Shown here: piece after piece, positions 31,591-62,137 of the stretch
Layout of the letters: the number at the start of each line of letters is the position of its first letter
Numbering within the stretch: position 1 is the stretch's first letter
Source: Candidatus Woesearchaeota archaeon
GTDB lineage: Archaea > Nanobdellota > Nanobdellia > Woesearchaeales > GW2011-AR9
Assembly (NCBI GenBank): GCA_023265685.1
Contig: JAHFSP010000004.1
Coordinates: 1 to 62,891, forward strand
Length of the DNA stretch: 62,891 nt
Reading direction: 5' to 3'
Translations under genes and position numbers: made by a program
Notes under the pieces: generated by a model
What the model was told of the DNA's origin: nothing
Databases searched by the model: none
What the model saw: only the letters and a program-made list of their open reading frames with translations

Positions 31591-31644
31591 GAGGTCTACG
31601 GATTAGTGATTATTTATAAAAATGGAGGAAGAATTTAAGATTTA

Positions 31645-31974
31645 AATAAACTCAGAAATCCTGAAACAAGAAAATCTATGATTTTCTGTTCAGAAAACTG
31701 ATCTTTGTCAGTTTTCAAGAATCGCTTACCCATCGTTCGCTTCGCTCACTGTGCAGCACAAGAAATACAACAGCGATTGTATTTCTGTGCAGAAATGAGA
31801 TCTCTTTCTCATTTCTTGCAAGCTGCGGGGTATTCGGCGATTTCTAAGAAACGGATTTCTGGTTATTACTCGCCCATATCGTTGCAGAGCAACGGGGTAC
31901 AAGAAAATGCGAAACTACTCATTTTCTGCACAGAAAGGCGAAGTCTTTCTTGTATTAGACCCAGCGAGTAATAA
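31645..31974 (+). repeat. Structured palindromic dispersed element, copy 2, with three nested twin-hairpin inserts
   Basis: Colinear with the reverse complement of 2025-2182; inserts at 31667-31719, 31759-31818 and 31900-31952. Confidence 0.9.
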
Positions 31975-32010
31975 AAGTGAAATCAGTGAGGTGAAATGAG
32001 TGAATAAGAC

Positions 32011-34445: not shown

Positions 34446-36626
34446 TTAGAGTTTTTTTCTTTTTAATAATAATGCATTGGTTATAACACTTACTGAACTT
34501 AATGCCATGGCGCCTCCTGCAATAATGGGACTAAGCATCCATCCAGTAAATGGGTAGAGTACGCCTGCGGCAATAGGAATTCCAAGGATGTTGTAGAAGA
34601 GTGCCCAAAACATATTTTGTTTGATTTTGGTCATAGTTAGACGACTCAAGCGAATGGCGCGGGCTACATCAACAAGGCTATTTTTCATTAAGACAATGTT
34701 ACCACTTTCCATAGCCACATCAGTTCCTGAACCCATGGCAATGCCAATATCTGCTTGTGCAAGTGCAGGTGCATCATTAATACCATCGCCGACCATCGCA
34801 ACTTTTTTGCCGCCGCGCTGTAGTTTTTTTACGTAGCCTGCTTTGTCTTCAGGAAGAACTTGGGCAAAGAATTTTTCTATGCCAACTTTTGCTGCAATGG
34901 CTTTTGCGGTGCGCTCGTTATCACCTGTGATCATGTAGGGAATAATACCCATCTTTTTGAGAAGAGCAACAGCTTTTGGCGAATCTTCTTTTATTTCGTC
35001 AGCAACAGCAATAATTCCAATAAGACGACGACCTTCGGCCACCATCATTGCAGTCTTTCCTGCTTCTTCAAGAGCCGTTATTGTTGATTCAAATGGGGTT
35101 AATAATATGCCATTTTTTTTCATTAATGCAGTGTTACCGATCGAATAGTGTCGCGTACCAACACTTGCTTCTACGCCATATCCTGGAATGGTGTTGAATG
35201 TGCGCACCATTTGAAAAGTACATTTTTCATTCGTTGCTTTATTGACAATTGCCTCGGCTAATGGATGTTCTGATTTTTTCTCAATGCTGGCAGCAATAAC
35301 GAGAAGGTCTTTTTCGCTAATTCCTTTAATGGGAACTATGTCAGTGACTTCAGGCTTGCCTTTGGTGAGCGTACCGGTTTTATCGAAGATGACGTATTTG
35401 AGTTTGTGTGCGGTTTCAAGTGCGTCACCGCCCTTGATTAGAATTCCGTGCTGTGCACCAAGGCCTGTTCCGACCATAATTGCAGTGGGTGTTGCGAGGC
35501 CAAGTGCACAAGGACAGGCAATCACTAATACTGCTACTGCGGCAATGACGGCAAAACTAGTCTGTGCGTTGGCAATAGAGAACCAGATGGTGAATGTGAC
35601 GAGAGCGATGAATATGACGATGGGAACAAAATAGGCAGAGATCTGATCTGCAAAACGTTGAATGGGGGCTTTTTTAGTTTGCGCGTCTTCAATAAGCATG
35701 ACTATTCTTGCAAGCGTGGTGTTGTTACCGACTTTGGTCGCTTTGAATGTGAAGTTGCCATGTTTGTTGATAGTTGAACCAATAACTTGATCACCATTCT
35801 TTTTTTCTACAGGAATACTTTCTCCGGTGACCATGCTTTCGTCAATGGATGAATTTCCGTTGGTAATTATACCATCAACGGGAATTTTCTCTCCAGGTTT
35901 GACTATGACCAGATCTCCTACAACTACGGTATCAATAGAAATTTGTTGTTCTTTGCCGTTACGAACAACGGTTGCAGTTTTGGCACCAAGTTTCATGAGT
36001 TTGGCTATTGCTTGGCTCGTTCTACCTTTTGCGAGAGCTTCAAGATATTTACCAAGAAGAACAAGGGTGATGAGTACTGCTGAGACTTCAAAATATTGAT
36101 CTCCCATGGGATTAAACAAGACCACGTAGACAGAATAGAAATAGGCAGCACTTGTTCCTAATGCAATTAATGAATCCATGTTTGCGGATTTATTCTTGAG
36201 GGAAGCCCACGCACCTTGGTAAAAAATGCGGCCAACGTAAAATTGAACTGGTGTTGAGAGCACCAACAGAATCCAAAGACGATATGGAAGATCCATAAGG
36301 AGCATACCAATTAAAAGTGCAGGAACTGAGAAGATCGCACTCATGATAACTGTTTGTTTAAGTTTTTGAATTTCTTTCTTTTTGAGTTGTGCTTCGTTTT
36401 GGTGAGAAGACCCGTCAAAGACCATAGCTTCATAGCCTTTGCCTTTCACAGCGTGAATTAAATCATCTACTTTTGTTGATTTTTCATCAAATTCAACAGC
36501 TGCTTTTTCTGTGGAGTAGTTTACAACAGCTGATTTGACACCGGGAACTTTGGTGAGTGCTCTCGTAAGTAGGGTTGAGCAACTGGCACAGTGCATGCCT
36601 GAAATTTTAAGTGTGGTTTTTATCAT
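34446..36626 (-). CDS. copA: Cu(I)-translocating P1B-type ATPase
   Basis: [47 protein letters not shown]. Confidence 0.96.
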
Positions 36627-61563: not shown

Positions 61564-61627
61564 ATCTTCCAGAATGTTTATATTACATCCATTAAATCTC
61601 AAAACCAATGGTTGAACTTATTGTTAC
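61564..61627 (+). repeat. 64-bp direct repeat copy 1 (promoter + first 7 codons)
   Basis: 57/64 identical to 62074-62137. Confidence 0.92.
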
Positions 61628-62073: not shown

Positions 62074-62137
62074 ATCTTCCAGAACATTTATATTACATCC
62101 ACTAAATTCCAAAACCAATGGTTGAACTCATTGTCAC
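62074..62137 (+). repeat. 64-bp direct repeat copy 2 (topA promoter + first 7 codons)
   Basis: 57/64 identical to 61564-61627; TATA TTTATATT at 62087-62094. Confidence 0.92.

Follow-up and report, generated by a model that had tools for sequence, protein, structure and literature searches.

A miniature twin-hairpin repeat family of Woesearchaeales whose central dinucleotide is usually the reverse complement of its duplicated target

A 62,891-nt stretch of DNA from the metagenome-assembled genome (MAG) of a Candidatus Woesearchaeota archaeon (assembly GCA_023265685.1, contig JAHFSP010000004.1, positions 1 to 62,891 of the forward strand; hereafter the window) carries at 31645–31974 a palindromic repeat that is interrupted by three inserts, each built of two hairpins. 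We find that these twin hairpins belong to a family of repeats that is real, abundant, and limited to one lineage, a single family of the order Woesearchaeales. On balance, we consider it probable that the inserts are a non-coding, non-autonomous mobile DNA element that inserts with a 2-nt stagger and whose centre pairs with the target in a folded intermediate. The mirrored layout of the dinucleotides at its centre and flanks points to an insertion mechanism that reads DNA shape. In what follows, G000 is the source genome (a DPANN MAG of 55 contigs and 1.28 Mb with a GC content of 39% and a completeness of 90.6%), other G-numbers are surveyed genomes, all of which are MAGs, C-numbers are contigs (C9 carries the window copies), and L-numbers are loci.

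The inserts and their family

Two copies of one repeat lie in the window in opposite orientations, at 31645–31974 and 2025–2182, as found with a repeat finder and by alignment of positions 31630–31990 (plus strand) with 2010–2200 (minus strand). The long copy consists of four collinear blocks that share 90–96% identity with the short copy and are split by three inserts, and the length bookkeeping is exact (330 − 158 = 172 = (53 + 2) + (60 + 2) + (53 + 2)). Insert 1 (31667–31719, 53 bp) is shortened and decayed, ends on the right in TTTTCAAG, has the centre TT at 31689–31690 and AA flanks at 31665–31666 and 31720–31721, and lies within an internal loop of the folded host repeat. Insert 2 (31759–31818, 60 bp) is canonical, with the centre TG at 31788–31789 and CA flanks at 31757–31758 and 31819–31820, and occupies the apical loop of the host hairpin CCGCAGC/GCTGCGG. 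Insert 3 (31900–31952, 53 bp), the second hairpin of which is short, has the centre CA at 31929–31930 and TA flanks at 31898–31899 and 31953–31954 and lies in the loop of the host hairpin GGGT-ATTAG-ACCC. Each of the flanking dinucleotides is single in the short copy and doubled around the insert in the long copy. All three inserts share the grammar CAAGAAA-hairpin-TTTCTG-NN-CAGAAA-hairpin-TTTCTTG, of which inserts 1 and 3 are shortened versions, and matches to a covariance model built from seven copies of 58–60 nt coincide exactly with the three intervals (86.8 bits and E = 5e-16 for insert 2; 41.9 bits and E = 5e-6 for insert 1; 43.3 bits for insert 3, the E values of the two shortened inserts being about 3e-6 to 5e-6). 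The shared grammar is far beyond chance expectation. A preliminary description of this DNA had reported insertions of 53, 60, and 53 bp with AA/AA, CA/CA, and TA/TA duplications and a common two-hairpin grammar; alignment, repeat finder, and covariance model agree on the insertions, and the duplications and the grammar are likewise real.

The covariance search that the same description had proposed, across the genome and related MAGs, located the three inserts in every composite copy of the repeat in G000 and, in addition, solo copies on C39, C32, C55, C42 (two), C7, C15, C13, and other contigs. In the survey of the GTDB family, matches with E ≤ 1e-8 were found in 50 of 81 genomes and 37 of 58 genera, the highest copy numbers being about 28–35 elements per genome, and none of 119 genomes sampled from other families of the order had a match at E ≤ 1e-9. 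The element, typically 58–60 bp long, is short, non-coding, present in many copies, and bounded by the terminal inverted repeats CAAGAAA...TTTCTTG, as is generic for a miniature inverted-repeat transposable element (MITE), and comparison of filled with empty sites reveals the target-site duplication of such elements. Six filled sites can be paired with empty ones: the three in the window; two in a host-repeat copy of G021, where twins at two different positions are bordered by AG/AG and TG/TG, each dinucleotide being single in the G000 sequence; and one in G063, where the CA centre of an outer twin, uninterrupted in G086, is precisely the site of an inner twin flanked by CA/CA. Identical dinucleotides flank the element at 46 of 47 independent sites.

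Host-repeat copies in G001, which belongs to the same genus as G000, and in G008 have all three insert sites empty, and insert-free copies are also found in other genera. Because the G001 and G008 sites are empty and the inserts of G021 lie elsewhere, the insert-free host form is ancestral. The preliminary description had allowed for the converse, in which the long form came first and was shortened by deletion between 2-bp microhomologies. The long form is indeed commoner in G000 (at least four to five copies versus two to three of the short form); yet with insert-free copies in several genera, inserts at different positions in G021, inserts that stand alone in 50 genomes, and three precise deletions in one copy being implausible, we give this history next to no probability. 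An ultra-small, structure-defined mobile unit with a 2-bp duplication, as originally suggested, is therefore supported, since the short form is ancestral and the unit occurs outside the host repeat; that it always carries the duplication is nearly, not entirely, the case. Comparison of orthologous sites in G001 revealed no case in which a twin alone was cleanly polymorphic. On C39 the solo twin is embedded in a ~230-bp repeat (C39:25100–25330) with the inverted ends GTCCTAAG...CTTAGGAC, and the whole ~230-bp composite is missing at the orthologous site of G001, where a (TAA)n microsatellite is found instead.

Centre, flanks, and hairpin stems

The integrated element has the layout U-unit-U'-inverted unit-U, where U is the target dinucleotide, single in the empty site and mostly pyrimidine-purine (YR), and U', enclosed in the central G-NN-C, is the reverse complement of the flanking U. 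This rule holds at 39 of the 47 independent sites, compared with a permutation mean of 10.0 and a maximum of 22 in 20,000; in a census of 66 sites, from which homologous sites had been removed less strictly, it holds at 55 versus 15.2 expected. The classes that obey it (flank/centre) are CA/TG, TG/CA, TA/TA, CG/CG, AA/TT, TT/AA, CT/AG, and AG/CT. Within the window, inserts 1 (AA, TT) and 2 (CA, TG) follow the rule and insert 3 (TA, CA) is off by one transition. Because the centre is complementary to the flanks, each hairpin stem can continue across C:G and U:U', leaving a single A bulged, and a circular form of the element would fold as a continuous rod. A search for longer centres found no twin with a centre of more than 2 nt. 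Two other topologies were discarded by reasoning on paper, a double-stranded circle, for which 62 bp is too small, and exchange with a hairpin-ended dumbbell, which would break the chromosome.

Evidence on whether the centre is inherited with the element or rewritten at each insertion pulls both ways. Among near-identical twins at unrelated sites (at most three differences over the 58 other positions), flanks and centre differ in 14 of 20 pairs, and a single lineage of near-identical hairpins (L099, L121, L154, L148, and L149) has the flanks TG, CA, CG, TA, and CG, respectively. On the other side stand three sets of twins at homologous host positions in which both flanks change together and the centre is kept: L148 and L149 are identical twins with the centre TG and the flanks TA/TA versus CG/CG; the twins on C32 and C55 of G000 both have the centre TA, between CA/CA and TA/TA, respectively; and one host site has the flanks TG/TG in G086 and TT/TT in G057 while the centre remains CA or TA. 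The simplest reading of these sets is that one element was inserted independently into hot-spot positions with differing dinucleotides, in which case the target supplies the flanks and the element brings its own centre, usually but not necessarily complementary. The retention of the centre where flanks differ favours a model in which the centre pairs with the target as a splint or guide, and we keep target-templated synthesis of the centre as the main rival.

The hairpins themselves were analysed in 108 distinct aligned copies comprising 2160 stem cells, of which 99.2% are paired, only 7 hold G-U, and 17 are unpaired; pairing is 80.6% in shuffled controls and 45–58% in slid structures. In 16 of the 20 pairs changes have occurred on both sides (395 cells). 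Five foot base pairs (AGAAA/TTTCT) and a 6-nt loop are conserved and five distal pairs are variable, so that each unit reads 5'-CA-AGAAA-(5 variable bp)-loop MAACKA-(5 bp)-TTTCT-G-3' with one bulged A. The loops of first hairpins, CAACGA or AAACTA, are the reverse complements of those of second hairpins, TCGTTG or TAGTTT, and the element therefore consists of two units of one kind in inverted orientation, with the same grammar read from either strand. In no copy do stems 1 and 2 agree (e.g., TACAA vs. TGAGA), nor are they mutually complementary; the stems are drawn from a limited repertoire (ATACGA, ATGAAG, ATGAGA, AACAAA, AATAAG, and others) that is combined in many pairings. Of the freely varying, structure-conserving stems noted at the outset, the maintained pairing is thus confirmed, while the freedom gives way to a limited set of palindromic modules on a conserved foot and loop. 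The nearly perfect, wobble-free Watson-Crick pairing, together with the strand-symmetric grammar, argues for a constraint on DNA rather than RNA, and it points to either a requirement that both strands fold or the copying of one arm from the other.

Sister grammars with altered feet, CATGAAA...TTTCATG and CACAGTGAAA...TTTCACTG, are found at L003 (G021 C46, about 1440–1530), at L113 and L139–L145 (G002), and at L237–L240 (G044), and they suggest a wider superfamily of twin hairpins in which terminal and central boxes co-vary.

Host repeat, target sites, and candidate enzymes

The host repeat is an element in its own right, larger than the twin; it is a MITE of IS200/IS605 origin, as its hairpin modules match both ends of an IS200-like element that bears a Y1 transposase gene. 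The insert-free copy (2025–2182) contains two "TAATACCCCG + hairpin" modules in direct orientation, which resemble the left end (LE) and right end (RE) of the IS200-like element at C51:79327–79867 in G000, the Y1 gene of which lies at C51:79415–79777 (PF01797, E = 9e-29), and TAATACCCCGCAGCTTGCTGCGG likewise occurs at both ends of that element and as two direct copies in the host repeat. Sharing LE and RE hairpin modules with a Y1 element of the same genome is characteristic of palindrome-associated transposable elements (PATEs), and the 158-bp host repeat does so. The long composite copy (31645–31974) is this 158-bp MITE with the three twin-hairpin inserts, and at least four full copies with 98–99% identity are present in G000 (C9, C48:3895–4225, C34:1253–1585, and C51:7245–7575), with further pieces at the ends of contigs C20 and C15; the short form is found on C9 and split over the contig ends of C22/C25. 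The host repeat has kept multiplying after gaining its three inserts. As single-stranded DNA, the short form is predicted to fold with −39.1 kcal/mol (z = −7.9 vs. shuffled controls) and the long form with −73.4 kcal/mol (z = −9.7), the inserts occupying unpaired regions of the predicted host fold and leaving the host helices intact. Contigs C15, C20, C22, and C25 terminate within host-repeat copies, and the host-repeat family is thus one cause of assembly fragmentation. A composite copy at C40:14203–14378 of G000 has lost ~150 bp internally, apparently between similar GATTTCT motifs, so that twin 1 runs from its second hairpin straight into the host segment GGATTTCTGG.

Reconstructed empty sites have a symmetric consensus (T-rich, G, R|YR|Y, C, A-rich, R being purine and Y pyrimidine) that resembles the element's own central site. 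All five inserts known in this host-repeat family lie in predicted unpaired parts of the fold, and recurrent host-repeat positions are filled by different twins (L129/L130/L152; L160/L154; L094/L164; and the position of insert 3, which other twins fill in G063, L124/L125). Across targets as a whole the enrichment of hairpin loops is weak (p = 0.025), and we rejected a general hairpin-loop preference; the proposed targeting of a larger palindromic element therefore holds as a tendency and not as a rule. Long open frames cover 81% of the neighbouring DNA, yet they contain none of the 20 copies tested. At G051 C43:2229–3231 and G080 C2:5478–6655, a twin lies 300–500 bp upstream of a reverse transcriptase (RT) gene of a size (about 400 aa) like that in diversity-generating retroelements, a placement that may be fortuitous or may mark non-coding DNA preferred for landing.

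The presence of candidate enzymes was compared between 49 element-bearing and 31 element-free genomes of the family, 80 incomplete MAGs in all, for four protein families. Y1 HUH transposases (PF01797) occur in 22 of 49 versus 9 of 31 genomes (odds ratio 2.0, p = 0.17), resolvases (PF00239) in 20 of 49 versus 7 of 31 (odds ratio 2.4, p = 0.14), and RTs (PF00078) in 23 of 49 versus 11 of 31 (odds ratio 1.6, p = 0.36); IS630-type DDE transposases (PF13358) are found in 9 of the 80 genomes and are absent from G000 and most high-copy genomes. The transposase, RT, or HUH gene that the preliminary description had proposed to look for thus shows no significant association with the element among these genomes, and no autonomous element with the same ends encoding a transposase was seen for the four families in these MAGs. 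Since the element is limited to one taxonomic family, a family-specific factor of the host or of a plasmid or virus is likely.

Y1 genes are present in 31 of the 80 genomes, with three in G000, and the ends of the Y1 elements examined (that on C51 and the C21/C24 pair of G000, and one in G063) have no twin-type hairpins. A Y1 gene was near a twin in one case only, on C97 of G063, where the two are ~900 bp apart and have no hairpins in common. In the second IS200-like element of G000 (Y1 genes C21:181–540 and C24:7614–7973), one end (C21:1–60, C24:8120–8160) holds TTTCTGAGCAAGAAA; its grammar is similar to that of a twin junction, yet it has no covariance-model match and we treat it as a coincidence. 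One of the resolvase matches is a pair of overlapping genes on the minus strand of the window (4465–5825), which encode a 249-aa serine recombinase with Resolvase and Recombinase domains and a 204-aa protein in which an HNH nuclease replaces the resolvase domain. About one quarter of the family genomes have one close relative each of the window resolvase (E about 1e-42).

Two further features of the window were noted. The P-type copper ATPase gene (34446–36626, a 2178-bp gene) has its nearest relatives exclusively in Woesearchaeota or Nanoarchaeota MAGs, and its matches in L009, L010, L046, L056, and L066 span 400–900 bp more, which suggests insertions in the gene, an intein or a translated repeat, in other Woesearchaeota. 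Direct repeats of 64 nt with 89% identity lie 510 bp apart at 61564–61627 and 62074–62137 (repeat-scan family D1).

Insertion mechanism and relation to known systems

Solely from these sequence patterns, we propose that the twin would move in trans at the DNA level, served by a dimeric protein with specificity for the conserved foot and loop of each hairpin and not for the sequence of the stem. The target would be opened with a 2-nt stagger, and in a folded intermediate, either single-stranded or cruciform, each target overhang would pair with the central dinucleotide. Such pairing would act as a 2-nt splint or guide that lengthens the hairpin stem and brings the ends into place to be joined; a match to the centre would thus favour a target without being required, and gap repair would then produce the 2-bp duplication. 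Several points weigh against this proposal. Pairing over 2 nt is very short as a specificity determinant, the rule is broken at 8 of the 47 sites, and the centre turns over much faster than expected of a simply inherited guide. Identical twins have been seen only as passengers of larger repeats and so give no sign of recent movement of the twin itself. Finally, no enzyme has been identified, Y1-HUH, resolvase, RT, and IS630-type DDE genes being without significant association in the 80 incomplete MAGs, and the high-copy genomes G091 and G095 have neither Y1-HUH nor resolvase nor RT.

The main rival, target-templated synthesis, holds that the centre is written at each insertion and not inherited, and we regard it as possible but doubtful. 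Two hairpin units, carried together, would be joined to the two 3' ends of a break with a 2-nt stagger, snap back, and extend by 2 nt on the overhang, whereupon the complementary ends would anneal and extend (synthesis-dependent microhomology-mediated end joining), which yields sense, hairpin, antisense, hairpin, sense by construction. This would agree with a centre that is the fastest-changing part of the element and nevertheless nearly always matches the flanks, as in the lineage of L099, L121, L154, L148, and L149 with its nearly identical hairpins, with the occurrence of the CA and TG classes in the same element orientation (18 vs. 8 by a tally made by eye after removal of same-host-site copies; 24 and 9 before), and with hairpin modules that occur in many different pairs; perfect palindromes without G-T intermediates also suit arms copied from each other. 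However, the L148/L149, C32/C55, and G086/G057 twins keep their centre despite differing flanks, the same hairpin pair recurs at unrelated sites, so that the twin travels as a unit, the centre never exceeded 2 nt in our search, and neither an enzyme nor a free hairpin intermediate is known. That Woesearchaeales have a mobile-DNA mechanism undescribed in any domain, in which hairpin modules are attached to the ends of a 2-nt break and joined via a reverse-complement copy of the target, is a tentative idea to which we assign a rather low probability; if it were true, the element would rewrite its own centre at each jump, its stems would stay palindromic by snap-back copying, and the 2-nt case would stand as the smallest example of a broader class.

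Enzymes of known type could also be invoked. Movement by a Y1 HUH transposase, either a REP-associated tyrosine transposase (RAYT) or one of IS200/IS605 type, would make the twin resemble the doublets of repetitive extragenic palindromes (REPs) known as REPINs, with a dimer binding the two hairpins in single-stranded DNA and hairpin-foot bases pairing with the cleavage and target site like the guide sequences of IS608. Two inverted extragenic hairpins recognised by structure do match the REPIN layout (PMC3116915), Y1 genes occur in 31 of the 80 genomes, and the favoured host repeat is itself derived from IS200/IS605, but we consider this explanation unlikely: PF01797 is missing from 27 of the 49 element-bearing genomes, including high-copy G065, G086, G082, and G095 and near-complete G001, the three Y1 elements examined lack twin-type hairpins at their ends, IS200/IS605 elements and REPINs make no target duplication and use a fixed target word, and the twin stems, not being mutually complementary, form no long REPIN hairpin. 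An ordinary DDE-transposon MITE with a 2-bp duplication (IS630/Tc1-mariner-like or IS5-like), whose hairpins would be inverted terminal repeats and whose central complementarity would be incidental, is improbable in our view. Its terminal inverted repeats, 2-bp duplication, symmetric target consensus, and small size would all be accounted for, and Correia elements of Neisseria offer a precedent for the 2-bp (TA) duplication, yet IS630-type DDE genes are scarce in the family, no longer element with the same ends was seen, and neither the complementarity of centre and flanks (39 of 47 vs. 10 expected) nor the perfect covariation of internal stems is predicted. A modular structured RNA, which the preliminary description offered as the alternative to a mobile unit, is disfavoured and very improbable. 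The host repeat would be a non-coding RNA gene that gains hairpin pairs, with the twins selected or processed as RNA, in keeping with the very stable folds of both forms, the undisturbed host helices, and the covarying stems; on the other hand, there is almost no G-U (7 of 2160 cells), the grammar is the same on both strands, copies occur in both orientations, in unrelated contexts, and even nested in one another, and Rfam 15 gives zero matches at or above the gathering score across the whole window. By inspection, the exon-like flanks vary, so that a bulge-helix-bulge splice motif cannot generally form, and an archaeal intron of this type, in which exon-intron pairing gives a helix, 3-nt bulge, 4-bp helix, 3-nt bulge, and helix at either boundary, was rejected on inspection, with no dedicated search, since flanks unrelated between sites and constant ends make an exon-intron helix impossible in general.

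The genomes of DPANN archaea are among the smallest of any cells, and the group is generally assumed to hold little selfish DNA; one DPANN family is seen here to carry dozens of copies per genome of an element far below classical MITE size. The U/U'/U layout provides a sequence-level handle on the mechanism, in which the target is either chosen by a 2-nt internal splint or duplicated as an inverted copy during insertion, and we know of no prokaryotic repeat family with an internal 2-nt splint or inverted target copying. Stem changes that are double-sided and exclusively Watson-Crick would offer a clean natural case of a protein recognising the shape of a DNA hairpin. The twins cause assemblies to break at contig ends, disrupt other mobile elements and now and then a gene, and could serve as lineage markers in Woesearchaeales; their enzyme, if found, could give a compact tool that inserts DNA by structure recognition.

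A literature search found no paper on such elements in DPANN archaea, and the twin-hairpin element is apparently undescribed so far. Its layout is closest to that of REPINs and its pairing logic closest to the guide sequences of IS608, which reportedly selects its target by pairing of the hairpin foot with the cleavage site. Members of the IS200/IS605 group (IS608, ISDra2) resemble the twin in having hairpins that are read by shape and foot bases that pair with the cleavage or target site, so that changing them changes the target; however, their LE and RE hairpins are direct, whereas those of the twin are inverted and make the element strand-symmetric, and they use a fixed target word of 4–5 nt on one side without duplication, whereas the twin uses 2 nt on both sides. 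PATEs, with direct hairpins, a fixed 5' target word, and no duplication, likewise differ from the twin with its inverted units and variable duplicated dinucleotide. Correia elements (NEMIS/CREE) and other MITEs that duplicate 2 bp are, like the twin, non-autonomous and mostly intergenic, with inverted ends and no known transposase gene in the host, but Correia elements are 100–155 bp long, form one long hairpin, and always duplicate TA, in contrast to the two hairpins, variable YR duplication, and matched centre of the 58–60-bp twin.

Small dispersed repeats of Nostocaceae (SDR1–8), single units of 21–27 nt, have reportedly been proposed to move through RNA. They are similar to the twin in their size of tens of nucleotides, in conserving structure through compensatory changes, in their restriction to a lineage, and in lying inside MITEs, palindromes (HIP1), and their own copies. 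These repeats are treated in PMC5861425, which cites the original description (Elhai et al. 2008). No sense/antisense/sense target signature such as that of the twin is known to have been reported for them. Membership of the twin among these cyanobacterial repeats, or a cyanobacterial origin, was rejected, HIP1 not being enriched and the nearest relatives of the window gene being Woesearchaeota MAGs. Double-hairpin elements have also reportedly been described from mitochondria (Paquin 2000). They and GC clusters are found in fungi and algae (e.g., PMC5910586) and, like the twin, are short mobile repeats with two hairpins in small genomes, without a known enzyme and in some cases with short target duplications; they are organellar and unrelated in sequence, and no rule relating centre to flanks is known for them.

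REPINs are REP doublets that form hairpins and are associated with bacterial RAYT transposases of the Y1-HUH type (Bertels and Rainey 2011, PMC3116915). Like the twin, as the orientation of its loops indicates, they consist of two inverted palindromic units and are tiny, non-coding, extragenic repeats that are recognised by structure and occur in clusters and nested, and the "clover" fold of two hairpins proposed as the form seen by their enzyme recalls the two-hairpin layout of the twin. However, the two REPs share one sequence and form one long hairpin, whereas the twin has two different stems; REPINs have neither a target duplication nor a target-matched central dinucleotide, whereas the twin has both; a REPIN family adjoins a single-copy RAYT gene, the like of which was not found for the twin in a family where PF01797 is often missing from element-bearing genomes; and REPINs are bacterial whereas the twin family is archaeal. 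The twin belongs to the known class of miniature non-autonomous mobile repeats, and its signature may reflect a new insertion mechanism.

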